64,000 nt of DNA from Candidatus Gottesmanbacteria bacterium (GCA_016214885.1 JACRMP010000005.1:6725-70724), one strand, 5' to 3'. Positions 15,306 through 64,000 are shown, counted from the first letter of the stretch. Notes: generated by a model not told the origin, from the letters alone. Program-made: numbers and translations.

Positions 15306-15806
15306 ATGGATATTTTGTATCATGCCGTAAGCGGAATTGCTATCGCCAAAAGCATACAATCACCTGATTTCGGAGGCGCAGCAATATCTGCGATACTTCC
15401 TGATATTGTGGGCATAATCCCCTTTTATGCCATCAAGTTTATGGAAGCCTCCCCCGCTCCCAAAACAACATTTATCAAAAAGTATACACATCTTCTGCTC
15501 TCCAATAAATTCGCCAACACATTTGACTCTACCGTCTACCGCGCAACCCATTCGTTATATGCAGCAGTCATGTTTGCTGCCGCGATGTACATATTTTTCC
15601 GTGAGCAGTGGGTGTTGTATTCAGTAAGCTACCTGTCCCATATCCTGATCGACATCCCCACCCATGAAGGAGACTTCGCGACCCGGATATTTTATCCGTC
15701 ATCTGATTTTCATTTCCGGGGATCTAATTGGTCGACTAACCCTAAGCGGTTTTTGTCCTTCTGGTTAGCCTTAGTGCTGATTATCCCGCTGTTGTGGCAA
15801 AGGTAG
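15306..15806 (+). CDS. putative membrane-bound metal-dependent hydrolase (YdjM/DUF457-like)
   Basis: Multi-TM 166-aa protein with His-rich motifs (HILIDIPTHEGD). Confidence 0.35.
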   Translation: MDILYHAVSGIAIAKSIQSPDFGGAAISAILPDIVGIIPFYAIKFMEASPAPKTTFIKKYTHLLLSNKFANTFDSTVYRATHSLYAAVMFAAAMYIFFREQWVLYSVSYLSHILIDIPTHEGDFATRIFYPSSDFHFRGSNWSTNPKRFLSFWLALVLIIPLLWQR

Positions 15807-16434
15807 AAATCCACATTTCGTGAGGCCGCTCGCTATTTCTGTCTTTCTGATCCCAGACCAACTGGTCAAACACTTTAAATCCCGCTTCTTCGAGGGAAGT
15901 CCTGACTTCTTCGCGCGTATAATAGGTAAAATACCGGGTATCGCCTTCTATCGTGCCGCTGGTTACCAGCTGATCCCCGGTTCCTTCTTTAAGAAGCAGG
16001 AATAATGTGCCGCCAGGCGTCAGCATATGCTGGAAATTCCGCAGCACCGGAAGCCCTTCTTCGCGGGTCAGATGCAGAAGCGATGCGCATGCCCAAATGC
16101 CATCGAACGAAGAATTAAGGGCAATGTTCCGTAGGTCCATTTTCAGAAAACGGGCGTTGGGGTGTGCGGTTTCTATGGCATACGCAAGAAGCGTTTCTGA
16201 TAAATCAATCCCTGTCACCACAAACCCTTTGGAAGCAAAATAATTAGCGTCCCTCCCTGAGCCGCACCCGGCGTCCAGTATTTTTCCTCCCGGTTTAACG
16301 AGAGAAATAAATTTCTCGCGTTCCGACTGCGGCGCGTACTTCTGGACTTTCAGGATATATTCCTTAGCGGTCTTGTTGTAAGTATCGATAGTAGTTTGGA
16401 TGAAATTATTCTTCATGACTAATCTTATTAGCAA
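15781..16434 (-). CDS. class I SAM-dependent methyltransferase
   Basis: Motif I ILDAGCGSGRD and downstream motifs. Small-molecule/UbiE-SmtA-like MTase rather than a DNA MTase. Confidence 0.8.
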   Translation of the reverse strand: MLIRLVMKNNFIQTTIDTYNKTAKEYILKVQKYAPQSEREKFISLVKPGGKILDAGCGSGRDANYFASKGFVVTGIDLSETLLAYAIETAHPNARFLKMDLRNIALNSSFDGIWACASLLHLTREEGLPVLRNFQHMLTPGGTLFLLLKEGTGDQLVTSGTIEGDTRYFTYYTREEVRTSLEEAGFKVFDQLVWDQKDRNSERPHEMWISTFATTAG

Positions 16435-16933
16435 CCTTTTTTTTAGACTTCAATATATAAGTTGCATCAACAACGCCATCTAGCTTCGCAATCACTGCCA
16501 TTAATGTTTGGTTTAACACTTCTTGATCGTTTTTATTTTCTTGCTTTATTTCCTCATATTCTATTCCAAAAGGGCGTCCAATTTTATCTATATCTCCTTC
16601 ATCAATTGAATAATTAAGCTCGTGACTACAATCATTCCTTACCGAATTCAGATTTTTAAGTGAATCAACTAATTTGCTTGGAATTGCTTCCATGGCTTCG
16701 AGAATAGATAGTTTCTCGCTGTAATACTTAAAGCTCTTAATCAAGATATAGCCTTTCGGAATTAGCATTGTTATTAATCTATCAAGATAATATTCGGCGA
16801 GCAGGTGACACTTTAGTATCTTAGTCACATCGTCGCCACAAGTTTGCATAACTTTTACGAATTTGTTGTATCCATCATCCTCAAGCATTTCTCGAGTAAT
16901 AACGTCTGTTTTATTTGATTTGCTATCGACCAT
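16406..16933 (-). CDS. hypothetical protein, AT-rich singleton with HEPN-like Rx4H motif (possible DUF4145/Abi-like)
   Basis: 175-aa ORF in a local GC trough (~35% vs ~50% flanks). Carries the motif NSVRNDCSHELNY. Its own RBS (GGAAAGGAAG) lies directly after the groEL terminator. Confidence 0.4.
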   Translation of the reverse strand: MVDSKSNKTDVITREMLEDDGYNKFVKVMQTCGDDVTKILKCHLLAEYYLDRLITMLIPKGYILIKSFKYYSEKLSILEAMEAIPSKLVDSLKNLNSVRNDCSHELNYSIDEGDIDKIGRPFGIEYEEIKQENKNDQEVLNQTLMAVIAKLDGVVDATYILKSKKKVANKISHEE

Positions 16934-16947
16934 AGCTTCCTTTCCTA

Positions 16948-16978
16948 CTCAAACCCCCGGTGTTTCCGGGGGTTTGAG
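16948..16978 (-). terminator. intrinsic terminator downstream of groEL (13-bp perfect stem CTCAAACCCCCGG/CCGGGGGTTTGAG, loop TGTTT)
   Basis: Perfect inverted repeat read directly in the sequence, 30 nt after the groEL stop. Confidence 0.7.
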
Positions 16979-17007
16979 TTAATACTTAGCAATTCATTTT
17001 ATTGGAT

Positions 17008-25031: not shown

Positions 25032-25046
25032 CGTATTTATTGTAAG

Positions 25047-25118
25047 TGGGTCAGCTTGGGATCGGACCAAGGACATCTATCTTATAAGGATAGCGCTCTA
25101 CCACTGAGCTACTGACCC
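25047..25118 (-). tRNA. tRNA-Ile(UAU)-like tRNA gene (anticodon loop CUUAUAA), unusual T-loop TCCGATC, CCA not encoded
   Basis: Manual cloverleaf on the reverse strand. Acceptor GGGTCAG/CTGACCC, D-arm GCTC-AGTGGTA-GAGC, anticodon stem CTATC/GATAG and T-stem CTTGG/CCAAG all pair perfectly. Confidence 0.6.
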
Positions 25119-25354
25119 TAAATTCTTAATTTTAAAAATCTTCTACCAAATCCTGTTTTAAAATACTTTTCTCGTTTAATTGCCTTCTTTTCATCTAAAC
25201 ATGCTTCATAATATATCAAATCAAACGGTCTTCTGTGTTTCGTTGAATTAACGCCACCTTTATTATGCTCATTAATCCTTCTTCTTAAATCATTACAAAA
25301 ACCTATATATAAATCATTATCTTTACGACTTCGCAATACGTATGTATAAAACAT
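25118..25354 (-). CDS. GIY-YIG nuclease-domain protein (YhbQ/UPF0213-like)
   Basis: FYTYVLRSRKDNDLYIGFCNDLRRRINEHN...KHRRPFDLIYYE...AIKREKYFK motifs of the GIY-YIG family. The stop codon abuts the tRNA 5' end. Confidence 0.75.
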   Translation of the reverse strand: MFYTYVLRSRKDNDLYIGFCNDLRRRINEHNKGGVNSTKHRRPFDLIYYEACLDEKKAIKREKYFKTGFGRRFLKLRI

Positions 25355-25463
25355 ACACTGACCTGCCCGCAACGCCTGAGCAAGCTCATGCTTGCGATGG
25401 CGGGCGGGGCTACTGACCCGGGGTACGGTATAGATTGTATCAAAGGAGAAGAACGCGTGCTAC

Positions 25464-26861
25464 CTAGGGCTGTAGGAGTTCTTCCATGCGGGCTTCGATC
25501 TCGAGGGAGCGCTTTTTATTTTTTGCAAAAATAATAAATGAAAACTTCTGCATACGCAGCAAATTTTCACTGGTAAGAATTAAGCCCTCTTTTGTGTCCT
25601 TATCAAACAATATCGGATGTAACCGCTCTTTGAGACTCAAAAACGTTTGCCGCTTAAGCTGTGGGATCATGTAGCCATTATTGGAAAAAAGATACGTATC
25701 AAACATAAAATTATCTCCAAAAAGCGCAACCGCCGTCGTATACACAAACGTTCCGCCGGTGCTTCTTACATTGGATTCCGCAACATATATTTCACCGTTT
25801 TTTCCTGCAACATAATCCACATCAAAATATCCACGGTAACCGCTGGCCGCAAACCGCTCCGCTATATAAAATCCGGTATCCTTAATCCGCGCCGCCACCC
25901 GTTCCGGCATTATGTCGTGACCGATTTCAATACCGTGGAAAGCACCCTCCTTGGTTACTAGCACCCCACAGTGATACAGGAAATCAATGTGTCCGTTTCT
26001 GTTAATTTTAAATTCCACATTCGGGTTACCTCCGGCTATCGTACTGCTTATCTGAATTAATTTTTCTATGATAATCGGAAACTGCTGCCAATATGCATCC
26101 TTATTAAGCAGGGCATAAATTTTTGCCTGGCATGCATGATACTCATTTGGCAAATCCCCTTCCCTGAATATTTCCACTCCCATGCCAGAATGCCCTTTAT
26201 TTGTTTTTATGACTACTCCCTGTTCTTTCACATACCGTATCGCGGCAATTTTTGATGCGTCCTCTATGCCGAAACAGATAACACCATCTGCCATTTTAAA
26301 GTCAGGCTCTTCATTGCCGCTTTGTTGGGCAAGCTGACGGATACCTGACTTACTGCCATAAAAATTAACCGTCCAGGCATCCTCCTCATCGGGAGCTTCA
26401 GGCGTCACGATGGTTAACCCTTTCTCACGAAGCGCCTTCACGAGATATAAAAACGGTTGGCTCACCGAATAGCTTGTCATCGTAAGTTTCTTAGATGAAT
26501 TTGCCGCTTCGACCAACGAATTCATAATAGACGGATCGTGCAGGATATCTTCACAGATTACTCCGCTATGTTGTGCGGTCGTCAACACACTTAAACGGGT
26601 ATTGGGGAAAAGTGAACGGAAATAATCCAGAAATTCCTTGCTTACTCCCTGGGGGGTAATATATAAAACGTCGTTATCCTCACCGGAGAACTGGAACATC
26701 CGAACGTCTCCCAAATAGCCGTTTTCCACAATTTCCGCAGACTTTGCATTCGGGTCGGACATGGCAGAGATAAACGGCCATACGTCTTCCGACATGTTAA
26801 AAATGTAGACTAAAACGTTATGTTTTTTTTCGGAGGAAGTATCCTCAGGAAGTTGACTCAT
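25464..26861 (-). CDS. ATP-grasp-fold domain protein (hypothetical ligase)
   Basis: Central VIKTNKGHSGMGVEIF and C-terminal YFDVDYVAGKNGEIYVAESNVRSTGG (E-x-N) ATP-grasp-like signatures. Confidence 0.45.
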   Translation of the reverse strand: MSQLPEDTSSEKKHNVLVYIFNMSEDVWPFISAMSDPNAKSAEIVENGYLGDVRMFQFSGEDNDVLYITPQGVSKEFLDYFRSLFPNTRLSVLTTAQHSGVICEDILHDPSIMNSLVEAANSSKKLTMTSYSVSQPFLYLVKALREKGLTIVTPEAPDEEDAWTVNFYGSKSGIRQLAQQSGNEEPDFKMADGVICFGIEDASKIAAIRYVKEQGVVIKTNKGHSGMGVEIFREGDLPNEYHACQAKIYALLNKDAYWQQFPIIIEKLIQISSTIAGGNPNVEFKINRNGHIDFLYHCGVLVTKEGAFHGIEIGHDIMPERVAARIKDTGFYIAERFAASGYRGYFDVDYVAGKNGEIYVAESNVRSTGGTFVYTTAVALFGDNFMFDTYLFSNNGYMIPQLKRQTFLSLKERLHPILFDKDTKEGLILTSENLLRMQKFSFIIFAKNKKRSLEIEARMEELLQP

Positions 26862-26940
26862 GAATAAAATTTATTATCGAATATTTAGAGAGCATTACAT
26901 GTTTTTTTTCTAATGTAAAGAGAGGAGTTAAGAAGATGCG

Positions 26941-29370
26941 TTATAACCGGGCACGTTCCTGTATTTCCGCTTCGATTAATTCACGCGCCTGCCCGTATTT
27001 AAGCCGCGACAACTGGATAATGGCTGCAGCCACATCCCTGTTTCTCTCGGCATTAACAACCGTCATATCTTTAGACAAATCCACACTAAACGGTTTCACC
27101 GGCTCGTTGTGCACAATTGTTTTAACATATGCGTTGAATTTGTCTATATTGATTAAATCAATTTCATTAAATGTCGGCTGGAATTCGTGTTGGAGATAAT
27201 TGGCATCGGTGACACCGACACGGAATGTTATGAGAGTTCCGACGTTTCCGAATACGGCGTTCTTCACTTCTTCTTCCATTTGTCCGATAAATTGGTTGGC
27301 TACGGTAAGGCTTAACCGGTATTTACGAGCCTCGGACAAAATCTGCGCAAAATCTGGGGTGGCAAAATTCTGGAACTCATCGACATACAGGTAAAAGTCA
27401 CGCCGCTTTTCCTCGGGAACATCCTGTCTGCTCATCGCGGCGATAAGAATACGCGGAACCAAAATTAATCCCAGGAAATTGCTGTTTTCTTCGCCCAATT
27501 TTCCCTTAGAGAGATTTACCAGTAAGATTTTCCCCTCATCCATGACCTTACGGAAGTTAAAGCTTGATTCCGACTGCCCAATGATGTTGCGCATGAGTTT
27601 ATTGGTGACGAAACGTCCGAATTTGGAAACGATATAATCCAACACCTCAGACTTATGGAAGTCAGCGGTCTGTGCAATCTGATCCGTCCAGTATCTTCTG
27701 ATGATCGGATCCTGCACCTTGGGCAACAGCTCCTGTACAAAATTGGCGTCTGTTAATATACGCACCACTTCAATAAAGGTGGTGCCCGGCTCATACATTA
27801 CCGTCAACATGGCGTTTCTTACCGCGTGTTCAAACCGCGGACCGATAATACCGGTTTTCTGCGGATCATAAAGCTTGTACATAAGTCCGACGATACTCGT
27901 TACCACAAAATGCTTCTGCTCCTCAGTTTCTGCCTCTAACATGTTAAGACCCATCGGCCGCTCACCGTCGGACGGATCAAAATAAATAACGTCTTCCGCG
28001 CGTTCCGGCGGAATACGGGTTAAAATACCGTCGATTAAATCTCCGTGGGGATCAATAACGGCAAGTCCCTTGCCCGCTTTTACATCCTGGATGACCAACT
28101 CTTCAAGCATTTGTGATTTTCCGGTACCCGTTTTTCCGATAACATAAATATGCCGCCTTCTGTCGTCATCCCCAATAAATATCGGCCTGTCTACGCCGCG
28201 GTACCTCGAAACACCAACATATAAACCACTCGATGCTATCTGCATCGGTGCAGGTGCACGTTTGGCATTCAGCCAAAAAATATGAGGAGTCTCAATCGAT
28301 TTATTCGGTAAATGATAAATGGTTGCCAATTCATCGCTGTTTAAAACACCGTACTGCTTAAACATCGGCAAATTCACCATGGGGAAATACCGGTATATAA
28401 AGTCGATCATAAAAAACTTCTTCATCGGATGCTTCACCTTGGAAAAGTGGTTGTGATCCGACGTATATTGGTGAAATGACGTAAGCAGGTTCTCAAGGTG
28501 CGCATCAGCCGCTTCCTTGGTGGCGGCGGATACAACCAGCCGGATGACGGTATTAAATCCCGGCTTAGATACTTTTTGTTCTATGGATTCCAATGTTTTA
28601 GCGTCTACCTTAAAACTTGCCTTCTCAGGATTGGCTTCATTCTTTTTTGTTTTAGAAATATACGATCTCCCTAAACTGCTCCACTTGCTTCCTGCGGGCT
28701 GGATAAGCACCTGGATCACCGCTCCCTCACCCTCTGCCATTTTGGCCAACACGCTGGTAATGGATGATAATGGATCAATGGGTAAATCACGGAATACCCT
28801 GATAGGCAGATAGTCGGAATTTTTCGGAGTAAGAGCTGCAAACGCTACTTTGCCGTTTTCAGAAAATATGTTGTATTCATCAACAATTTTTACATCTGCA
28901 CCCGGATATGAACCGTGAATCTGCTTTTCTACAAGATCGATAAACCGTTTGGGAGCTGCTATATAAAACCGTATGTCTTCCCTTTTGGCGACGATCTCAA
29001 ACGATATATGATCTTGCGGCTTGAGGAATGACCAGAATCCTCCGTGATACATAGCGTGCAGGCTGGCGAACATTTGTTCAGCGGCGTCAATTTTTATTTC
29101 ATTGTCACGCGGCGTTGCCACCTGCATGAGTGTATATTCCATTGATCGCTTCTCGCGGTCACGGTATTTCCATGCCAAAAATAATACATAGCCCAACACG
29201 GCAAACCCGATGAGACAAAAGGTAAGGATAAGCAGTGCTACTCCCAGCACTTCAAGTTGATACACAATATCGGCAAATTCGAGCGGCATAATATTATTCA
29301 GTAGTTGACCGTGTTGTTTTTCCTTTTGCGGAGGTAAGCAATATGTGCGCCTGCTTGAGCTGGCGTTCAC
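26941..29370 (-). CDS. membrane-anchored VirD4/TraG/TraD-family coupling-protein-like P-loop ATPase
   Basis: N-terminal TM helices. Walker A VIGKTGTGKSQ followed by AVIDPHGDL (the DPKGD-like motif of TrwB/VirD4) and Walker B LYVDEFQNF. Confidence 0.55.
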   Translation of the reverse strand: MNASSSRRTYCLPPQKEKQHGQLLNNIMPLEFADIVYQLEVLGVALLILTFCLIGFAVLGYVLFLAWKYRDREKRSMEYTLMQVATPRDNEIKIDAAEQMFASLHAMYHGGFWSFLKPQDHISFEIVAKREDIRFYIAAPKRFIDLVEKQIHGSYPGADVKIVDEYNIFSENGKVAFAALTPKNSDYLPIRVFRDLPIDPLSSITSVLAKMAEGEGAVIQVLIQPAGSKWSSLGRSYISKTKKNEANPEKASFKVDAKTLESIEQKVSKPGFNTVIRLVVSAATKEAADAHLENLLTSFHQYTSDHNHFSKVKHPMKKFFMIDFIYRYFPMVNLPMFKQYGVLNSDELATIYHLPNKSIETPHIFWLNAKRAPAPMQIASSGLYVGVSRYRGVDRPIFIGDDDRRRHIYVIGKTGTGKSQMLEELVIQDVKAGKGLAVIDPHGDLIDGILTRIPPERAEDVIYFDPSDGERPMGLNMLEAETEEQKHFVVTSIVGLMYKLYDPQKTGIIGPRFEHAVRNAMLTVMYEPGTTFIEVVRILTDANFVQELLPKVQDPIIRRYWTDQIAQTADFHKSEVLDYIVSKFGRFVTNKLMRNIIGQSESSFNFRKVMDEGKILLVNLSKGKLGEENSNFLGLILVPRILIAAMSRQDVPEEKRRDFYLYVDEFQNFATPDFAQILSEARKYRLSLTVANQFIGQMEEEVKNAVFGNVGTLITFRVGVTDANYLQHEFQPTFNEIDLINIDKFNAYVKTIVHNEPVKPFSVDLSKDMTVVNAERNRDVAAAIIQLSRLKYGQARELIEAEIQERARL

Positions 29371-56129: not shown

Positions 56130-57803
56130 TTAACATTCCCCTGTGGCGCAACGGTAGCGCAGCTTCCTGTTAAGAAGACGGTTGTAGGTTCGAATCCTAC
56201 CGGGGGAGCAAACTTCGTTCACTGCGAGTTCTATAAACTGCAGCGGTTTTTCTAAATTCACCCGTACAGTTTTGTTGTAAAGCTCTAGGTTCGAACCAAG
56301 CCCCGCTAAAATCTCCCTCTTTGTTTGTGTGTCTCCATTGGCAAACCAATAACGCGCGTGACAAGCGAAGTCGAAAGTTTTCTCAGCGGTCTCTCTCCAT
56401 GTCTCGGTCTGATATCTGTTCCCTCCAAGTTTTTCAGTTATTATATTTTTTTCTTTGGTCAGTCGTTCTTTTTCTGCTCGATATTCTTCGTCACTGATAA
56501 GAATGCCGTCCGCGTTTTGCGGAGATATTCTAAGATTCAAAAGGTTATTTAGACGAGTTTCTATATCTGTATTCGCTGATTGAAGAGATTTCAGTGTAGC
56601 CAAATTTTCCTCCGACTCTCTATCATTCAGTTCGTTCAGATATTTTATTGCCCAATTTTTGAAGCGCTCCGAGACTTGGAGCTTTGCGAGGGTTTTATCA
56701 AATTCTTTGTCTAACTCTTCAACTCGGATGCTCTTTTGGATGCAGTTTTGATTTTTGTGTTTGGTGCAGTGGTAATAAACATAATGCAGAAGTGTTGGAT
56801 TTTTCATTTCTTCGATTGAGGTTTTACATTTCGGACAAGCGTCCTTGTTTTGAGAAGCGAACTTGTTTTTGCATTTAGAGCATATTATTTGAAACTTTTC
56901 TTCTGCAGTAATAGTCGCATGGCATTCACCACATTCTAGAAGTCCTGTATACGCAAATGACCGAGTGTGTGGTCGAGGTCTTCCTTTTCTTCCAAGCAAT
57001 CTTTGCACCTTGTCGAATTCTTCTTTGGTAATCATTGGCTGATGTTTGCCTTTGCGCCAAATTCCGCTTCCAGTCGGATACTCAAAGTCTCCGTAATAAA
57101 AGGGGTCTATTAGCGTTTTGTATATTTGACTTCTCGTCATTGGTTTTCCACCTATCCGTTTATGCTTGGGAGTCCTATAGCCCCATTCGTCGTTTAGAAG
57201 TCGTAATATTTGCATGACCGTATACGTTCCCGTGAGCATGCAATCCCACGCTTTGCGTATTAGCGGAAATCTATCTGGGTCAACTAAGATGGTTTTGTTT
57301 CCCTTTTCTGCATACTTGTCGTTCATATAACCAGCTTTAGCACCGCTGGGGAGCCAGCCATTCTCTGCTTTTGTATTGAGACCTCGCTTGACGTTTTTTG
57401 AGAGGTCATCTACAAATTTTTGTGCCACACCAAACTCTAGATACATGAGAATGCTATTCTCGTTTGATTGATTGAAGGTTTGCGAAGGAGTTACTATGTC
57501 TATGCCATTTTGTTTTATTGCCCAAATAATACTCCCACCATCGATAGGATTTCTGGCGAGACGGTCAAGCTTCCAACTGATAATTCCTTGAGCCTCTCCA
57601 GCTAAAACTCGTCGAATCATTTCATTGAAGACAGGCCTACCGGGTTCCTTGGCTGACTGAGATTCTTGAAAGGGTTTTTCAGCAACATCAAGATTCAGCC
57701 TTTTTGCCAAGCTTTTGAGTTCTTCAATTTGAGAGCCGATAGACAATACCTGTCTGTCTTCGCTTTCACTAGATTTTCTGGCGTAAATGAAGTATTTACT
57801 CAT
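56130..57803 (-). CDS. large serine recombinase (resolvase/invertase N-terminal catalytic domain + recombinase domain + Zn-ribbon + coiled-coil). The annotated C-terminus reads antisense through tRNA-Asn.
   Basis: N-terminus YARKSSESEDRQVLSIGSQ (catalytic Ser) ...DRLARN. Cys-rich CGECHATITAEEKFQIICSKCKNK...CPKC Zn-ribbon. The C-terminal peptide SPGRIRTYN is the antisense reading of the tRNA T-arm. Confidence 0.85.
   Translation of the reverse strand: MSKYFIYARKSSESEDRQVLSIGSQIEELKSLAKRLNLDVAEKPFQESQSAKEPGRPVFNEMIRRVLAGEAQGIISWKLDRLARNPIDGGSIIWAIKQNGIDIVTPSQTFNQSNENSILMYLEFGVAQKFVDDLSKNVKRGLNTKAENGWLPSGAKAGYMNDKYAEKGNKTILVDPDRFPLIRKAWDCMLTGTYTVMQILRLLNDEWGYRTPKHKRIGGKPMTRSQIYKTLIDPFYYGDFEYPTGSGIWRKGKHQPMITKEEFDKVQRLLGRKGRPRPHTRSFAYTGLLECGECHATITAEEKFQIICSKCKNKFASQNKDACPKCKTSIEEMKNPTLLHYVYYHCTKHKNQNCIQKSIRVEELDKEFDKTLAKLQVSERFKNWAIKYLNELNDRESEENLATLKSLQSANTDIETRLNNLLNLRISPQNADGILISDEEYRAEKERLTKEKNIITEKLGGNRYQTETWRETAEKTFDFACHARYWFANGDTQTKREILAGLGSNLELYNKTVRVNLEKPLQFIELAVNEVCSPGRIRTYNRLLNRKLRYRCATGEC
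56136..56207 (+). tRNA. tRNA-Asn(GUU)
   Basis: Manual cloverleaf: acceptor TCCCCTG/CGGGGGA, D-arm GCGC-AACGGTA-GCGC, anticodon loop CUGUUAA, T-arm GTAGG-TTCGAAT-CCTAC. TATAAT at ~56114. Confidence 0.8.
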
Positions 57804-57827
57804 ATTTTGCAGTCAATAACTATCATA

Positions 57828-57989
57828 TCACGGTTTAGGTTGTGATAGTGGTCTATAGATATTTTTTATTAGATTCAGAAGGCGCATTGCTCTAGGCTGT
57901 GCCTCTTTTTCTGTCAGCTCTATATCAAACTCGTCTTTATAGAGTTGAATGAATTCCTGAATCGCCGTTTTAGATAAGTTAGTCTTCAT
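57828..57989 (-). CDS. small hypothetical protein (53 aa) overlapping the RHH gene (ATGATGA overlap), possible RDF/partner of the RHH protein
   Basis: Manually translated as MKTNLSKTAIQEFIQLYKDEFDIELTEKEAQPRAMRLLNLIKNIYRPLSQPKP. Below the ORF-track size cutoff. Confidence 0.3.
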   Translation of the reverse strand: MKTNLSKTAIQEFIQLYKDEFDIELTEKEAQPRAMRLLNLIKNIYRPLSQPKP

Positions 57990-58146
57990 CATGTTCCTCA
58001 ACCGCCAGAGCTTCAGCTATGTACCCCTCTAGAAACTCTCTAATGCTCGTACCAGCCTGTACAGCTTTCAACTTGAGCAACTTATGCAGGTCTGCTCTCA
58101 CAAGCACCTGTTTCCATGCTTTTTTATCGATTTGTCGATTTTTCAT
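57979..58146 (-). CDS. ribbon-helix-helix (CopG/Arc/MetJ-like) DNA-binding protein (55 aa)
   Basis: Manually translated as MKNRQIDKKAWKQVLVRADLHKLLKLKAVQAGTSIREFLEGYIAEALAVEEHDED. RHH pattern (beta-strand KQVLVR, then two helices). Confidence 0.45.
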   Translation of the reverse strand: MKNRQIDKKAWKQVLVRADLHKLLKLKAVQAGTSIREFLEGYIAEALAVEEHDED

Positions 58147-58662
58147 ACTTTTCTCCCCCTCCTCTCTAAGAACACCCTCCGTTCCCTCGCTTCTTCCGGT
58201 CTATCTTTCCTACTGAAAAATTTTTCAAATTTTCAGTGAGGTAAGCTTATTTGTTAGATGAGCCATCAGTCGCTTCGGTTTACGGACAGCCTTGTGTAAA
58301 CGCTTATTACTCGGCAACCCTTTCGGGATAACGTGAGTAGGCTGCAACTCTCCATTTCCTGCTTGTTAGCAGGTGTATGGGATTTCCCCATGCATCAGCC
58401 AACAAAAAAGCCTTATTAGCTCATTGGTAGGGAGAGGGGTTCCTACCAAAAAACCAATAAGGCTTACCCCTCTCTTTTTGCCAACAAAAAAACGGCTAGC
58501 TATCTGAGACTGAGCCACAAAAGCTCAAGTCGTCTAGACGCATTGCCGTCTCTGTTTAGGAGGTTTGGTTGCCTTGTCTAAATTCTGATATTTACTCTAT
58601 ACCTCGTAACCAACCGTCGTCAATAAGGGAAATTACTCAAGAGTATAGAGCATAATAGCGAC

Positions 58663-59061
58663 CTATTTAGTTTTGATGTCATGATAACTTACCACCTGAA
58701 TAGGCAATCCATCGGTGCTAATGTCTGTAGACAGCTTGTCTGTCCAGCCCATATTTTTCAGCGCAAAAATCACACCAGTTGGCTGTGTTCCGTAAATCAA
58801 CCGTTCTTCATACGACACTTCGATTCTTGCCCTAGCCCTTTTTATTATGTCCAAAAACTCATCTTTCTCACTGTAGTTGTATAGTGTTTGCCTGCTCACT
58901 TCTAAGAAGTACGCCAGTCCAGACAGGGTTGGTTTATCTGTAGTTTCAAAATAGGCATCTACCAATTTTTGTACAGCTTGAATATTTTTCCACACAGGAG
59001 GGCGTCCGGTTGTCATGAGGATAGTATAGAAACCATTTCTACCTGAAGGGAAGAGGCTCAA
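58663..59061 (-). CDS. phage terminase small subunit (Terminase_2/TerS family), HTH-containing
   Basis: TTGRPPVWKNIQAVQKLVDAYFE...PTLSGLAYFLEVSRQTLYNYSEKDEF...IFALKNMGWTDK matches the conserved TerS pattern. The functional start is probably MTTGRPP (~59016). Confidence 0.7.
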   Translation of the reverse strand: MSLFPSGRNGFYTILMTTGRPPVWKNIQAVQKLVDAYFETTDKPTLSGLAYFLEVSRQTLYNYSEKDEFLDIIKRARARIEVSYEERLIYGTQPTGVIFALKNMGWTDKLSTDISTDGLPIQVVSYHDIKTK

Positions 59062-59474
59062 AAATTCAATAATCTTGCAGGAATAATCATCTTTTCAACT
59101 TCGCGTACAACCTTATCTACAAACACATCTAGAGCTTTGAAATCCTTCAAAACAGCCTTGTTTACCCCTCGACGCTTCGCATCTTCGTTGTAGTTTGGCA
59201 CAGAGGAAATCGAGATGACCTTGTCAGCTCCGAACCGCTCAATGTCAAAAACATGGAATGACTCATTGAGCTTACAGTCTCTGTCCAGCAGAACAATGTC
59301 AAACTCAGCCTGCGGGTTCGCGTTCACATAGTCTTGTACCTGTTGGTGGTTCGTAAGAACGATGGTAGAGAAATCGTAGGGCTGGTCTTGTTCTAAGACG
59401 TAGAGTTTTTCAAGTAACAATGAGAGCACGTGCAGATTGTCTTCGAGAATAAGAATCGTTTTGCTGAGCACCAT
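59058..59474 (-). CDS. standalone CheY-like receiver (REC) domain protein
   Basis: ILILEDN...DIVLLDRDC... pattern with an acidic pocket and the phospho-acceptor Asp context. No output domain. Confidence 0.5.
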   Translation of the reverse strand: MVLSKTILILEDNLHVLSLLLEKLYVLEQDQPYDFSTIVLTNHQQVQDYVNANPQAEFDIVLLDRDCKLNESFHVFDIERFGADKVISISSVPNYNEDAKRRGVNKAVLKDFKALDVFVDKVVREVEKMIIPARLLNF

Positions 59475-59705
59475 AGGTAGAGACTATTGTATCAGTAACA
59501 AACCTATGAGTTTTTTTATTGGTCAGGAAAGCTAGGGTGCGTGCTTAAAAATCTGAAATCTCAGCAAACCCAGCATCTTATTGTCCCTTTTTTATCGTGT
59601 AAGAAAACCTTAGTAAACCTTAGGATTTTTGTGCCTAAGCATCTAAAAAATCTTGTCAAATCTTGACATGCACTATTGCCTTTTTTATCGTGTCAAAAAA
59701 GTCAC

Positions 59706-59915
59706 TTAGAGAAGGTCTTTTGGGGACACTTTGAGAGCCTTAGCTATTCCGTGGATGGTATCTATAGAAACATTTTGTTCCGCTCTTTCAATTGCTCCAA
59801 TATAAGTCCTATGGACACCTGCGCGAAATCCAAGCTCCTCTTGCGATATGCCGAGCTTCTTCCTGAGCTTCCTGATACGTTCTCCTAGTTGCTTTCGAGT
59901 TGGTGTAGCTTTCAT
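59706..59915 (-). CDS. XRE-family helix-turn-helix transcriptional regulator (69 aa)
   Basis: LGERIRKLRKKLGISQEELGFRAGVHRTYIGAIERAEQNVSIDTIHGIAKAL, a classic Cro/C1-type HTH. Confidence 0.85.
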   Translation of the reverse strand: MKATPTRKQLGERIRKLRKKLGISQEELGFRAGVHRTYIGAIERAEQNVSIDTIHGIAKALKVSPKDLL

Positions 59916-60266
59916 CTACACCGAATCGTATTCAAATGAAGTCAATGACTCTACAGACAATAACTAGCATTTTAGCCTTATTTGTGATATGAAATTAGTT
60001 ATGAAGAACTTTCCGGATGTAGGCTCGCTCATAATCCTTACTTTAGTCTTTTGGCTTATTTTTTACTTCACCCACCTATTTTTACTAAGAATTGGTGGGC
60101 GTGGCTGGGAAGAGCTCGCTTATTCGTTGATTGCTGCCTGCGCAGCGCTCTGCTGGCCTCGTGCAAAAGAATAGATTTTGGTTGTTAGATAAGCCATGCT
60201 GAGACTTCGAGCAATATTTTTGATAGAATTGCGCCATACAACAACTCCCTTAGTCAAACACGTTTT

Positions 60267-62756
60267 ATGTCAAATAAAGGGTCACCAGTGTACTACAGCA
60301 TCAATGCCTCCGTTCGAACTCCGAAGGTAGCAATTCTTGTTTTTACAGAAGACCCATATTGGAAAGACACCATCTTACGTATTACAGAATGGTGTACTGG
60401 GGTTTGGGGCGGTGCGTACAACATTGTAATTCCCACAAATGGCAAATCCATCGATGAAAAATTTTGGAAAATACTTGAAAAATACGGCACTGATTATATT
60501 TTTGCCTATCGCACATCAATAGCAGATATCAAAAAATCCAACCCAAAAAAGTATGAAGAAATAGTAAAAAGGGAGAGTGACAGGCTTACGAAGCAGTTTC
60601 CTGACATGGGTCAAGCGCAAATTGATGAGTTTATTGAAAGAGAAGTTGAAATGTCTCCGCGACTACCGTCAGAGGTAAGCGAAGAACTATCCCAAGAGCT
60701 AAAACATCGGCTGTCTCCATTTTATTTTGAAGACCATATAGTACAAGAAAAAGTATCAAATAAAGCATACGTTCCTTTTCCTTTGACTGACATAACCAAA
60801 ATCATCAACCACACAGATGTGGTGAGAGTTGTGGTGCCAGAGTATTCGGGGAATAAAGATATTGAGCTACTCATCTATTCTGTGTTTGGCAAACCACCTG
60901 ACGCCTATGAGGAAACTCTCAAAAAAAATGGTATTCAGATTGAACACATGTCTCCTGAAATACCAGTCGAAGAACTTGTCGATATTTCTATAACACGCAA
61001 AGTGGATTTGGCAGACTATAGATTCAGAGAAGAACTTAGGAAAGAACTCCGTTCAAAAGGTAAAAAGCCTAAGTATCCATCTGAGGATTTTTTTGGCATC
61101 TCGCCGTCTGCAACCTCAATGCTCAAGCTTGGATACTATACCCTAAGGGACGATAGGAGTGACCTTGATGATGAAACAGTGTTATTGATTGTTGGTGACA
61201 CGATAGAAGATTTTTGTTTATATTTGAGCGTTTCAAAGTTGAACAAAAACGTTCATTGGATTCCCGTCAAATTTCTTATTGAAGCGAACGCGGCAATCAC
61301 AAAGAAAAAATTTGATAAAACAGAAGTGAGTATTGCATCAACGATTGCACATGCAGTATATGGAAAAATCAGATACGGAACATCACAAGGTAAAATACAC
61401 CTTTATAGTAATTCTTGTGACAGGACGCAGCTCGACGCCTATAAGGACATACTGGCGCACCTAATAGATGACAGCAGTCGCCACCAGATAGCAGTTGATT
61501 CAATTTTGATATGTGAGAATCTAGACGAACACCTGAAAGAGATACTTCACGTTATAGAAGAAAATAATTACGTAAACCAGCACACAGAAACTTTTGTGGA
61601 AGGTAAAAGTGTTGGCACAATCCCTACGCCTAAGCCAAAGAATTTCAAATTTGTGCATCCTGCAGAGCATCGCTGGATAACAGAGTTGACCATAGATGGA
61701 TACACTCCGCCACCCTTAGCCCTTCTGGGCGAAAGCATTATTATCACAGGAGTACAAACACATCCAACGCGTATTTCTCGGTATGGACTGTGCTACGTTT
61801 CCCCGAGCATAGGCTATTTTGGGGGAGATATTGACACGAACACCTTGCGACCAAAATTACAAATTGTTGAACCATTCAATATTTTCAAAGAGTATATCAA
61901 AGAGGCAGGATATGACGATTTGGTGATATCAGACAAAGGAGGCTATTCTTCTATCTCAACAGAAAAATTTGGCTCGCTCGATACAATAGGCGCTTTCCTT
62001 GCAGAGGAGAAAAATAGAAACCTTCTGGATAAGTTTAGGAATTCACCTTCAAATACTTCGGAGGGTGGGGAAATTATTGAACTGAACGGTAGAAATTATA
62101 TTGATTTTACCGCTATCGAGAAGACGCTTGGAACGAGAAGGGAGGCAATTGAAATTGTAGACGATTTTTTTGTAAAAGGGATATTTTATAGAGGCGTGCC
62201 TCTTCAGTGTAACGACTGTCGCAATTCGGAGTGGTACGCGTTGGACGAAATGGAGGCGAGTTTTATCTGCAAACGATGCGGCAGTAAGCAACTTATCAAA
62301 CATCGAAATTTACACGGGGCAAAAGAGCCACAGTGGTTTTATAAACTCGATGAGGTTGTTTATCAAGGTGTGGTTAGTAATATGCACGTGCCGCTTCTAA
62401 CGCTCTATCGTCTGAAAAAAAATTCAAAGAGTTTTCTTTATATCCCAGAATCAGATGTAATAAAAGGCGATGATAAAATTGAATTGGATGTATGCTGCAT
62501 TGTAGATGGAAGGATTATTATTGGTGAAGCCAAAAAGGATGCCATTAGGCAACGCGATATAACGAAATATTCTGATATCGCGAAAACACTCAAGAGATAT
62601 CCTGATGAGGTCATTTTTTCAACTTTTGCAGAGGACTGGTCAGAGCCAGTAAAGGCTTACATACAGCAAAATGTAAAAAACTCAAGCATCCTTGTTCGGA
62701 AAGACCTAGTTGTTGTGCCGCCCACTCAACCATCTGCAGCAGATACTGCTGTGTGA
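60267..62756 (+). CDS. large hypothetical protein (829 aa) with C-terminal CxxC...CxxC Zn-ribbon followed by a PD-(D/E)xK-like motif. Candidate effector of an island-borne defence/exclusion module.
   Basis: No P-loop. CNDCRNSEWY...CKRCGSK Zn-ribbon at ~aa 640-665, then ELDVCCIVDGRIIIGEAKK (D...ExK spacing typical of the restriction-endonuclease fold). Very AT-rich codon usage. Confidence 0.5.
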   Translation: MSNKGSPVYYSINASVRTPKVAILVFTEDPYWKDTILRITEWCTGVWGGAYNIVIPTNGKSIDEKFWKILEKYGTDYIFAYRTSIADIKKSNPKKYEEIVKRESDRLTKQFPDMGQAQIDEFIEREVEMSPRLPSEVSEELSQELKHRLSPFYFEDHIVQEKVSNKAYVPFPLTDITKIINHTDVVRVVVPEYSGNKDIELLIYSVFGKPPDAYEETLKKNGIQIEHMSPEIPVEELVDISITRKVDLADYRFREELRKELRSKGKKPKYPSEDFFGISPSATSMLKLGYYTLRDDRSDLDDETVLLIVGDTIEDFCLYLSVSKLNKNVHWIPVKFLIEANAAITKKKFDKTEVSIASTIAHAVYGKIRYGTSQGKIHLYSNSCDRTQLDAYKDILAHLIDDSSRHQIAVDSILICENLDEHLKEILHVIEENNYVNQHTETFVEGKSVGTIPTPKPKNFKFVHPAEHRWITELTIDGYTPPPLALLGESIIITGVQTHPTRISRYGLCYVSPSIGYFGGDIDTNTLRPKLQIVEPFNIFKEYIKEAGYDDLVISDKGGYSSISTEKFGSLDTIGAFLAEEKNRNLLDKFRNSPSNTSEGGEIIELNGRNYIDFTAIEKTLGTRREAIEIVDDFFVKGIFYRGVPLQCNDCRNSEWYALDEMEASFICKRCGSKQLIKHRNLHGAKEPQWFYKLDEVVYQGVVSNMHVPLLTLYRLKKNSKSFLYIPESDVIKGDDKIELDVCCIVDGRIIIGEAKKDAIRQRDITKYSDIAKTLKRYPDEVIFSTFAEDWSEPVKAYIQQNVKNSSILVRKDLVVVPPTQPSAADTAV

Positions 62757-62765
62757 AAAAATTAT

Positions 62766-63254
62766 ATGAATGCGCAAGAGTTTATTACGAAGTGGCGATG
62801 GCCAAAAGACCCAGATGGAACTCCTATGGTCGGCATTGTGGTTGTTTGGGACAAAATTCCCCTAGATAGCAAAATAATCACTTATTCTGGAGAAGAGGCA
62901 TGGAGTAAGATTTTAGCTTACGCGCCCCCGTGGCATAACGAAGGAGTAGTAAAACCTTTTAGTCAATGGATTGGAAGTAAAGGATTTTCTGACGAAGTGG
63001 AAAGCGAAAGGAAAGCAGGAAAACTCGATTACTACAATAATCATGGTTTGGAATATCCTTTCTTTTGTGTTTTTGCGACCAAAGACGGTTCTAAAGGAAT
63101 AATCGGTGATGGCAATCATCGGTTTGTGAACTGTAAATCTTTACAAGATAATGGAAAAGACCTGAGCACGGATATAGCTAGATGCACACTAGAAGTAATA
63201 TGTCTCGATAATTTGTCAGAAGTTATTCAGGACGCAGTTTTTCCTAATTACTAA
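62766..63254 (+). CDS. hypothetical protein (162 aa) with DGQHR/ParB-Srx-like motif (IIGDGNHRF)
   Basis: GDGNHR resembles the DGQHR (DndB) / ParB-N nuclease-fold signature. Starts 10 nt after the 829-aa gene, so probably co-transcribed. Confidence 0.4.
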   Translation: MNAQEFITKWRWPKDPDGTPMVGIVVVWDKIPLDSKIITYSGEEAWSKILAYAPPWHNEGVVKPFSQWIGSKGFSDEVESERKAGKLDYYNNHGLEYPFFCVFATKDGSKGIIGDGNHRFVNCKSLQDNGKDLSTDIARCTLEVICLDNLSEVIQDAVFPNY

Positions 63255-63274
63255 AGCGAATTGCATCGCCTAGA

Positions 63275-63703
63275 TTACTCACAGTAGTAAAAAACTCCTC
63301 CGTAACTGATTTGTGTGCGAATATCAAAGCTATCATACTCTTCAACACATTCTCTAAATTTCTGATATCGGTCTTCCGCGTTTGCATAGTCGTAGTACCA
63401 TTCTTCAGCAGTTTGACCGTTATATTTGCCCAAGCTACCTACTGCGCCTAAGCCTTTGCTTCCAAGCCAAACCACAATTCCAATGGCTAATAAGGCCAAG
63501 CCAAGGTATAAAAGCGAAGAGAGGGTAGATTTGAACCAATTTCGTATCTGATTATTTGGAATGGTAATTAGAGCAAAAATCAGAAACATTACGCCGCCCA
63601 AATACCAGAAGATTTTGTAATAAAAGGCTGCTACTGCTAGAACGGAAAAGACCAAGAAATTTCCCCAAGTTGGCGCGAAGTCTTTATCCTCTTTTTGTTC
63701 CAT
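63275..63703 (-). CDS. hypothetical membrane protein (3-4 TM helices)
   Basis: ORF with hydrophobic helices, convergent with the cargo pair. Confidence 0.4.
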   Translation of the reverse strand: MEQKEDKDFAPTWGNFLVFSVLAVAAFYYKIFWYLGGVMFLIFALITIPNNQIRNWFKSTLSSLLYLGLALLAIGIVVWLGSKGLGAVGSLGKYNGQTAEEWYYDYANAEDRYQKFRECVEEYDSFDIRTQISYGGVFYYCE

Positions 63704-63901
63704 ATAGTTTCTTGGTCAGTCAAAAAGATTATATCAACAAACATGACTTTTGTACTAAAAGACGCTAGACTAAATAGGTTCTGAGGTCGCCCATCAGGTG
63801 GAGCAAGTACAAAAATGAGGCGCGATGCCTCTTTTTTGTACTCTTATTTCTGTCATAGACTTTAATTATTGTGAATCGGCGACGTTCTTGTTAAATTGAG
63901 T

Positions 63902-64000
63902 TATGATCAAAAAATCTTTAGTTGCATTGTTTATTTTAACTTTACTTGTCGTACCTAAGGTGCAAGCAGAAGGCGGAAGTCCAATTGTGGCACTGAGAAC
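63902..64000 (+). CDS. secreted protein, N-terminal fragment (signal peptide MIKKSLVALFILTLLVVPKVQA), continues beyond the window
   Basis: ATG at ~63902 followed by a hydrophobic h-region and an AxA cleavage-like site. Truncated by the window end. Confidence 0.35.

Follow-up and report, generated by a model that had tools for sequence, protein, structure and literature searches.

A serine-recombinase island with a phage-type small terminase at the tRNA-Asn gene of a Gottesmanbacteria genome, most likely fixed by a small attachment-site deletion

The 64,000-nucleotide stretch of Candidatus Gottesmanbacteria bacterium analyzed here (GCA_016214885.1 JACRMP010000005.1:6725-70724; hereafter the window) contains, immediately 3' of a tRNA-Asn gene, an island that begins with a large serine recombinase (LSR) gene, continues with small regulatory genes, a small terminase subunit (TerS) gene and a receiver (REC) protein gene, and ends with cargo genes. 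An earlier note on this DNA, made from the sequence alone, had proposed an AT-rich island integrated at tRNA-Asn, carrying the LSR gene and having the architecture of a phage satellite. Horizontal acquisition of AT-richer DNA at the 3' end of the tRNA is borne out by island-free alleles of the same locus and by the base composition, as the GC content is 0.407 from 56213 onward and 0.478 across the 56 kb upstream. This fall of 7 points, which is real although smaller than the roughly 12 points claimed before, places the island about 7 standard deviations under host windows of equal size (standard deviation 0.010, minimum 0.460).

Three contigs of the same species, retrieved by a look-up with the adjoining host 387-aa protein, show the locus without the island, so that the comparison with insertion-free genomes suggested in the earlier note could be made. 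In two of them (L075 and L078) the left flank is 99.6% identical to the window and ends at 56212, the right flank matches the window from 63797 and 63790, respectively, to 64000, and only about 140-144 bp separate the end of tRNA-Asn from the right flank; the third (L076) contains the start of the same short segment, and then the contig ends. Because L075 and L078 join both flanks with about 140 bp between them, the 7.6 kb are an insertion that varies between strains, and the sequence at 63843-64000 belongs to the chromosome. The island is thus a complete integrative element, contained in full within the window (56213 to about 63806), and does not run beyond the visible DNA as had been assumed, since identity with the island-free allele resumes at 63797. 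A second copy was found through a recombinase search match (P0001) whose contig, the 7,891-bp Logan contig L004, has 0 mismatches to window 56213-63842 over 7,630 bp, has the same gene content and differs at both ends. The element therefore has two defined ends, a size of about 7.6 kb and an integrase, and a scan of all open reading frames (ORFs) with Pfam and PHROGs detected no virion structural or lysis genes; in a blastn comparison of the island with phage records, the tRNA was the sole match. The hairpin just outside the right end is 41/42 identical to the terminator 3' of the tRNA-end repeat in L004 and L075. The possibility that the shared 7630-bp segment itself moves as a unit, by crossover at a CT at either end, was rejected because the CT would have to lie at different positions in the two contexts and the recombinase would lose its tail.

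Comparison of the junctions at the sequence level places the crossover in a 7-10 bp core, GGAGCAA(A), and because this core corresponds to the last bases of tRNA-Asn, the tRNA is regenerated on insertion. The part common to both ends is the 7-bp GGAGCAA, at 56205-56211 and 63800-63806. The left junction reads from the tRNA through CCGGG-GGAGCAA-A into the element, and the right junction reads GGTCGCCCATCAGGT-GGAGCAA-terminator-chromosome. Left and right attachment sites (attL and attR) that share a short core only, together with an existing empty site, are what a serine-recombinase element leaves. The right-hand repeat anticipated in the earlier note is present as this core, not as an extended repeat of the tRNA-Asn 3' end, and the 3' 18-mer of the tRNA has no second copy within the window when up to 3 mismatches are allowed. 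The T-arm-like repeat that the note had placed near 56289 also exists (CTAGGTTCGAACC at 56285-56297), but it encodes the recombinase motif GLGSNLEL, which is conserved in the family (G503, N505 and L506 are invariant), and it is not the crossover region. A first metagenome scan for the tRNA-end/terminator junction gave zero matches.

The organization of the attachment site before integration is indicated by a relative, L008, a 9,588-bp contig with a 23-bp terminal repeat whose recombinase is 85% identical to the query. No other whole-contig locus has a terminal repeat, and L008 is therefore probably an excised element in circular form. The element-side arm of the window attR (63772-63799) matches, at 18/28 positions, the sequence directly after the recombinase 3' end and core in L008. 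Because the L008 3' end and core run straight into this homologue of the right arm of the window, attP is placed inside the 3' end of the recombinase gene. An early model, in which an L004-type element had lost both att arms by an abortive excision with two breaks, was dropped because the island-free alleles and L008 show that 63772-63806 is a proper attR-type junction, which leaves an 85-bp deletion at attL as the only remaining lesion.

This lesion accounts for the unusual form of the recombinase ORF. In the window, a 557-aa ORF (56130-57803, minus strand) runs with its final 28 codons antisense through the tRNA, including the peptide SPGRIRTYN. The earlier note had correctly seen the antisense overlap and had taken it as the native design of such an integrase, which it is not. 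P0001 has 100% identity with the first 95% of the window recombinase and differs in the tail, and L004 carries 85 extra bp that encode EPTISEMFEPSEKIDNTIQLESLWLQNPTLLPR followed by a stop codon. Exactly these 85 bp (GTTGG...GTCGGCT) are absent from the window between GAGCAAA and CTTCGTT. A tail of about 34 residues (...EEPTISEMFEP.EK.DNT.QLE.LW.QNPSLLP(R/G)) ends the recombinase in 17/17 relatives read, and its final codons, TTG CTC CCC CGG TAG, are the antisense of the last 15 nt of the tRNA, so that the recombinase ORF of intact relatives (...LLPR and stop) terminates after 15 nt of tRNA sequence. The deletion therefore removed the last 34 conserved codons, shifted the frame so that the ORF reads VCSPGRIRTYN... 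through the tRNA, and eliminated the element-side half of attL, the P' arm (GTTGGATTTTGAAGCCAC...) that is present in L004. L004 and all relatives read possess both att half-sites and a full-length enzyme, whereas the window copy lacks this combination; the intact enzyme has 563 aa. As the attL half-site and the conserved recombinase codons were removed together, the window copy is most likely locked in place and unable to excise. The remaining part of the enzyme has the domains expected of an LSR (Resolvase 9e-21, Recombinase 3e-9 and, below threshold, Zn_ribbon_recom 8e-4), matches the phage integrase family phrog_95 (5e-68), and retains Y7, R9, S11, S12, R81 and R84, which are invariant among 15 homologues.

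The recombinase belongs to a clade of 55 loci obtained by a profile scan with one genome per species. The clade occurs in metagenome-assembled genomes of Patescibacteria/Microgenomates; where a record names the lineage, it is mostly one of the Microgenomates (Gottesman-, Woese-, Levy-, Curtiss-, Roizman-, Shapiro- and Daviesbacteria), and Ca. Gottesmanbacteria nzgw410 is the nearest syntenic host. At least 35 of the 55 loci abut a tRNA 3' end. At 29 loci the stop codon of the recombinase gene falls within the antisense tRNA, and 6 further loci adjoin a tRNA-Asn with an intron-like insert that was overlooked by ARAGORN; in all four of the interrupted tRNA-Asn loci scanned, Rfam confirmed a group I intron (RF00028, 59-100 bits). 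Several of these introns contain an HNH-like ORF (...CANCHREIH...). The target is tRNA-Asn at recombinase identities of at least 50%, and tRNA-Ser, -Trp, -Met or -Gln in more distant relatives. Relatives with both ends placed measure about 5.6-10.7 kb. A previous survey described the serine integrase (S-Int) class as 'not known for targeting tRNA genes', and counted 297 S-Int elements, 14 of them at t(m)RNA genes, with the remark that 'experimental proof will be required' (PMC7192596). Literature searches for serine recombinases at tRNA genes and for phage satellites, both in Patescibacteria, returned nothing relevant.

Junctions of the attP type were recognized at about 9 loci of the clade, where tRNA identity stops after TTGCTCC(CCC) and the ORF runs 25-45 residues more; these extensions are conserved within subgroups. 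The comparison of both forms shows, at the level of the predicted proteins, that the C-terminal tail of the recombinase changes upon integration, ending in ...LLPR in the integrated state and being 25-45 residues longer in the non-integrated state. Some recombinases with attP-type (non-tRNA) tails (L013, L014 and L016) are located 8-9.5 kb from tRNA-Asn on large chromosomal contigs, a layout that would be consistent with dimers that integrated, or with tandem elements that contain an internal attP. In Ca. Gottesmanbacteria nzgw410 (L005/L006/L010, 985-11752), a related element of about 9.3 kb occupies the syntenic tRNA-Asn, carries Mrr, a P4 cII-like protein, Beta protein, an M78 peptidase-HTH protein and HigB, and is followed by a 1.4-kb remnant; because the tRNA-end repeat is present in three copies, this locus is a tandem array.

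The standalone TerS that had drawn attention to the island was confirmed. By its sequence relationships it is genuine and of phage type, as it matches GP3_package (1.5e-17, profile positions 1-102 of 105) and the TerS family phrog_606 (7e-20). It has 296 homologues, with PF16677 in all those listed. Three of these (58-63% identity) are encoded directly upstream of Terminase_6N/6C or of an unannotated 456-aa ORF in the position of the large terminase subunit (TerL), and on the phage contigs that carry such homologues (34-67 kb, GC 0.37-0.39) portal, Mu F, prohead protease and capsid genes follow. A phmmer search of TerS against PDB gave nothing useful. Neither Pfam nor PHROGs, applied to every ORF between 56213 and 63806, detected a TerL, portal, capsid, tail or lysis gene, so that the whole element of about 7.6 kb passes the test by which the earlier note would have reclassified it as an ordinary prophage. 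Capsid-size genes, AlpA-type genes and redirection genes other than TerS were not found in the island either.

The regulatory genes named in the earlier note are also present. The XRE/Cro-C1-type regulator, which matches a PADLOC control protein (8e-22), is transcribed divergently from the cargo operon and has counterparts in 30 related loci, and the Omega-like ribbon-helix-helix (RHH) protein has counterparts in 8 (tblastn). Upstream of the recombinase gene, 32 related loci encode p57, which is adjacent to it in the closest relatives; it has no family match in the scans and is a candidate directionality factor or regulator. The receiver assignment of p138, the REC protein, is supported by family-level comparison: the profile of 122 cluster representatives has an invariant receiver quintet (E11, D12, D64, S90 and K110) and matches PDB response regulators over the full length (best 3kht_A, 1.9e-4), and 7 of 45 members weakly match Response_reg. 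The single p138 sequence has no Pfam match, gives nothing useful with phmmer against PDB and no significant hhalign alignment with CheY, and its single-sequence AF2 model is unusable (pLDDT 39.6). Two repeats occur between these genes. The inverted repeat in the 516-bp non-coding RHH-TerS spacer (58147-58662) is a candidate pac site, origin or terminator, and the direct repeats of the REC-XRE spacer are possibly an operator.

The three cargo proteins were detected by tblastn in only one related locus, L004. The orphan protein p829 has no Pfam or PADLOC match; fold modelling suggests that it is a likely defence nuclease with a Can2/Card1-like module, and it contains an ELD...EAK motif at residues about 739-756. 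No match was obtained for the 162-aa protein in Pfam, PHROGs or PADLOC, and none of significance for the hydrophobic protein in the family scans. Exact-protein look-ups with the window recombinase ORF and the 829-aa ORF found no match. In the related elements, 149 ORFs within 6.5 kb upstream of the recombinase were scanned at 28 loci. The cargo of the family is dominated by restriction-modification, toxin and defence genes, including HigB, PIN, Schlafen/AlbA_2, M78 peptidase, EcoRI methylase, Type ISP, type III restriction-modification, Vsr, DarT, AAA_15 and Mrr. Replication-initiator-like HTH_36 proteins occur in 7-8 of the 28 loci, other TerS families are represented by phrog_4044 (three times) and phrog_309 (twice), and the top families of the scanned ORFs include no capsid, portal or TerL.

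The short segment that follows tRNA-Asn in the island-free alleles is a mini-element of about 145 bp with three parts: a terminator, a module (about 93 bp) and an 18-bp repeat of the tRNA-Asn 3' end. Further copies are found 3' of attR in L004, twice in L005, and elsewhere near tRNA-Arg and tRNA-Glu. RNAalifold predicts 31 pairs, 9 of them compensatory (e.g., CCAGGAGT/ACTCCTGG to CCAGCGCT/AGCGCTGG), and the end of the mini-element, GTGGCCTTGGCCAAATCC, mirrors the island P' arm across an 18-nt spacer centred on the boundary between GG and AGCAA. The mini-element possibly functions as an alternative attR, or it may be non-autonomous and mobilized by the recombinase of the island. The idea that the module is a tRNA-like or group-I-intron-derived RNA was rejected, as Rfam gave no support (no family in L004 and none for the module in L075) and the strand comparison counted 11 G-U versus 9 A-C cells. 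A scan of viral contigs for the module pattern found no match.

Two other regions of the window differ from their surroundings. A stretch of lower GC content (0.42) follows a tRNA-Ile(TAT) (25046-25118, minus strand) and, within 25046-29370, encodes a Pre-ATP-grasp protein (25464-26861, minus strand) and an 809-aa VirD4/TraG-like type IV coupling protein (26941-29370, minus strand; TrwB_AAD_bind, T4SS-DNA_transf and TraG-D_C); it may represent another acquired region or serve in DNA transfer. The host kilobase of lowest GC content (0.405), 16001-17000, contains a SAM methyltransferase (15781-16434, minus strand) and a 175-aa ORF without family match.

Table 1. Features of the tRNA-Asn island, its junctions and related non-coding elements (window positions unless a locus is named)
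Feature	Position	Strand	Basis or sequence
tRNA-Asn(GTT), intact integration target	56137..56209	+	ARAGORN; same tRNA in island-free L075/L076/L078
attL crossover core GGAGCAA(A), junction between 56212 and 56213	56205..56212	.	sole sequence common to attL, attR and the tRNA/terminator junction
Non-native 28-codon tail of recombinase ORF, antisense across tRNA	56130..56216	-	follows 85-bp deletion relative to L004
Large serine recombinase, native part, residues 1-529	56217..57803	-	Pfam, PHROGs, P0001 identity
p57, small conserved protein (53-57 aa)	57828..58001	-	tblastn
RHH protein, Omega-repressor-like	57979..58146	-	Pfam Omega_Repress 1e-5, under gathering score
Inverted repeat with 24-nt arms, flanked by two copies of GCCAACAAAAAA	58408..58465	.	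repeat search
TerS, 110 aa from ATG (ORF to 59061 from TTG), without TerL partner	58663..58995	-	Pfam GP3_package
p138, standalone divergent receiver (REC) protein, 138 aa	59058..59474	-	family profile
Two 22-nt direct repeats (CCTTTTTTATCGTGT...), REC-XRE spacer	59586..59700	.	repeat search
XRE/Cro-C1-type regulator, divergent from cargo operon	59706..59915	-	Pfam HTH_3 1e-16
p829, 829-aa orphan protein, predicted Can2/Card1-like module and PD-(D/E)xK-type nuclease fold	60267..62756	+	
162-aa protein, 10 bp downstream of p829	62766..63254	+	L004 its only other locus
Hydrophobic, probably membrane protein (104-142 aa)	63275..63703	-	ORF, hydrophobic stretches
attR, element-side arm 63772-63799 and core GGAGCAA 63800-63806	63772..63806	.	
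Bidirectional terminator hairpin just outside core	63807..63842	.	terminator scan, both strands
Chromosomal right flank, start of gene with signal-peptide-like N-terminus	63843..64000	+	98% identical to L075, L078
Junction k-mer, window attL			GGGGGAGCAAACTTCGTTCAC
Junction k-mer, intact attL			GGGGGAGCAAAGTTGGATTTTG
Junction k-mer, attP inner form			CATCAGGTGGAGCAAAGTTGGATTTTG
Junction k-mer, attP outer form			TTGGCCAAATCCTACCGGGGGAGCAAAGTTGGATTTTG
Junction k-mer, empty site			CCGGGGGAGCAAGTACAAAAATGAGG
Mini-element copies	L075 8787-8930; L078 1060-1197; L004 35-146; L005 984-1150, 2409-2585; L029 1036-1224; L064-L068		
Group I introns in tRNA-Asn abutted by recombinases	L042 11724-12014; L024 11708-11906; L020 10759-10991; L033 11726-11905		Rfam RF00028

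Considering these data together, it is reasonably probable that the island is a complete 7.6-kb LSR element of Microgenomates/Patescibacteria, belonging to a clade that targets tRNA 3' ends and equipped with a satellite-like TerS, and that this copy was fixed by the 85-bp deletion. The XRE, RHH and REC proteins and p57 would control expression and excision, a phage-type TerS without TerL would allow packaging by a helper phage and hence satellite-like transfer, and the p829 nuclease, the 162-aa protein and the membrane protein would be a defence cargo through which the element repays its host for carrying it. Although plausible, the satellite reading is not proven, and the use of TerS for satellite-like transfer in intact copies is entertained only tentatively, at somewhat less than an even chance. 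Several observations weigh against the interpretation as a whole. The GP3_package TerS and the REC protein p138 were detected by tblastn in only 2 of about 55 related elements (L004 and L012), an iterative HMM search for GP3-type TerS in the family loci returned the same two, and packaging hijack is therefore not a hallmark of the family. No replication gene or origin was recognized in the island with Pfam, PHROGs and a repeat search, which showed no iteron array, and neither a helper phage nor an excised form of the exact window element was found. The intact copy L004 is represented by one Logan contig, the breakpoints of the 85-bp deletion have no flanking repeat or microhomology that would explain its mechanism, and there are two candidate working attRs, the inner site at 63772-63806 and the outer module-plus-repeat site of L004.

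The strongest alternative, rated at somewhat less than an even chance, is an ordinary integrative defence island, independent of phages, that moves as a small circle through its recombinase, spreads by transformation or some other route and carries TerS as a captured DNA-binding protein with a regulatory or excision-accessory role, or as a relic. The restriction, toxin and defence genes that fill the family agree with it, as do the rarity of the GP3_package TerS, the missing replication and capsid-redirecting genes and the probably circular L008, in which neither TerS nor a recognizable phage gene is found. On the other hand, TerS is full length and 58-63% identical to TerS of canonical TerS-TerL-portal operons, it recurs with the same REC partner in L012 beside different cargo (a type III restriction-modification system), and other TerS families appear among the ORFs of the family; since REC is 77% but TerS only 35% identical between the two elements, the divergence looks like retargeting rather than decay. 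An active PICI-like satellite (PICI, phage-inducible chromosomal island), which excises, replicates and is packaged after helper infection, would explain the integrase, the XRE gene with divergent transcription, the standalone TerS, the small size and the lack of structural genes, and replication-initiator-like genes (HTH_36 and PHROG initiators) are found in about 8 of 28 related elements. For the window copy this is improbable, because its attL lacks the element-side arm, its recombinase lacks the conserved 34-residue tail, a replication module is absent and no helper phage is known. Of the PICI-like label given in the earlier note, the small island with its own TerS thus stands; replication, AlpA and capsid-size genes are missing and attL is damaged, and it is TerS that carries the satellite status. 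The phage-type TerS and integrase might alternatively be the remnant of a full prophage whose structural genes were lost, yet this is very improbable given that the identical copy L004 is the same 7.6-7.7 kb unit between att sites, that the relatives (5.6-10.7 kb) lack capsid and portal genes and that the probably circular relative is only 9.6 kb. It is harder still to credit an assembly or binning artefact, in which foreign DNA was misjoined at the tRNA or the assembler created the 85-bp gap. The window recombinase and 829-aa ORFs are not on record as exact products, and the tRNA ends and terminator copies are short repeats, but both junctions are exact and centred on one 7-bp core, the flanks are contiguous in independent assemblies, and a collapse at the 85-bp gap is unlikely because its breakpoints have no repeats that could cause it.

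The element combines known kinds, namely a serine-recombinase integrative island and a satellite-like packaging gene, with an unusual class of target and in an understudied lineage. PICIs, including the Staphylococcus aureus pathogenicity islands (SaPIs), and the minimalist satellites (PICMIs) are reportedly described in the work of Penades & Christie, Fillol-Salom et al. and Barcia-Cruz et al. The island resembles PICIs in being small, in having a fixed att site, a terminal integrase, a divergent repressor-type regulator and TerS without TerL, and in carrying accessory or defence cargo with no capsid, tail or lysis genes. It differs in that its integrase is a serine enzyme, whereas PICIs typically use a tyrosine enzyme, in the absence of a primase/replicase with origin, AlpA, Ppi, Cpm and Rpp, in its damaged attL and in its Patescibacteria host. 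With LSR elements and phages (phiC31, Bxb1, TP901-1, SPbeta and SCCmec ccr), it shares the Resolvase-Recombinase-Zn-ribbon architecture, a short core between otherwise unrelated att arms and a small neighbouring gene for a putative directionality factor; unlike them, it targets a tRNA 3' end and has its attP within the recombinase ORF. Tyrosine-integrase tRNA islands similarly supply the displaced tRNA 3' bases, have int beside the tRNA, and show atypical composition and strain-variable presence, but they use another enzyme family and usually have longer direct repeats than the 7-10 bp identity observed here, where in addition the int ORF and the tRNA overlap on opposite strands.

Broussard et al. 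are said to have described, in 2013, integration-dependent immunity in mycobacteriophages with attP inside the repressor gene. The present arrangement is alike in that attP lies in the 3' end of a coding gene and integration alters the C-terminus, and it differs in that the altered gene is that of the recombinase itself, a serine recombinase. Compared with the Can2/Card1 CARF-nuclease effectors, p829 has about 10% identity, more than twice the length and extra N-terminal domains, and there are no CRISPR or cyclase genes near it.

The tRNA targeting observed across the clade, with Asn, Ser, Trp, Met and Gln genes as targets, contrasts with serine integrases being generally held to avoid tRNA genes, and it provides naturally occurring attP/attB pairs, with cores of 7-10 bp in conserved tRNA targets, that could serve as integration tools. 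That the tail swap upon integration controls directionality is a testable idea. The window copy provides an example of a mobile island fixed by a small att-site deletion, and the element illustrates how defence genes and phage packaging genes move in ultra-small bacteria, in which mobile elements are almost unknown. It is conceivable, although rather unlikely, that the Candidate Phyla Radiation has here its first phage satellites, a family of elements 6-11 kb in size with an LSR that, unusually for serine integrases, targets tRNA 3' ends and has attP in its own coding sequence, so that the tail swap could be a directionality switch. Some of them, the window element among them, would have gained a helper-matched TerS controlled by REC/XRE and would travel in phage capsids with their defence cargo; if TerS is used, phage satellites would extend to this radiation.

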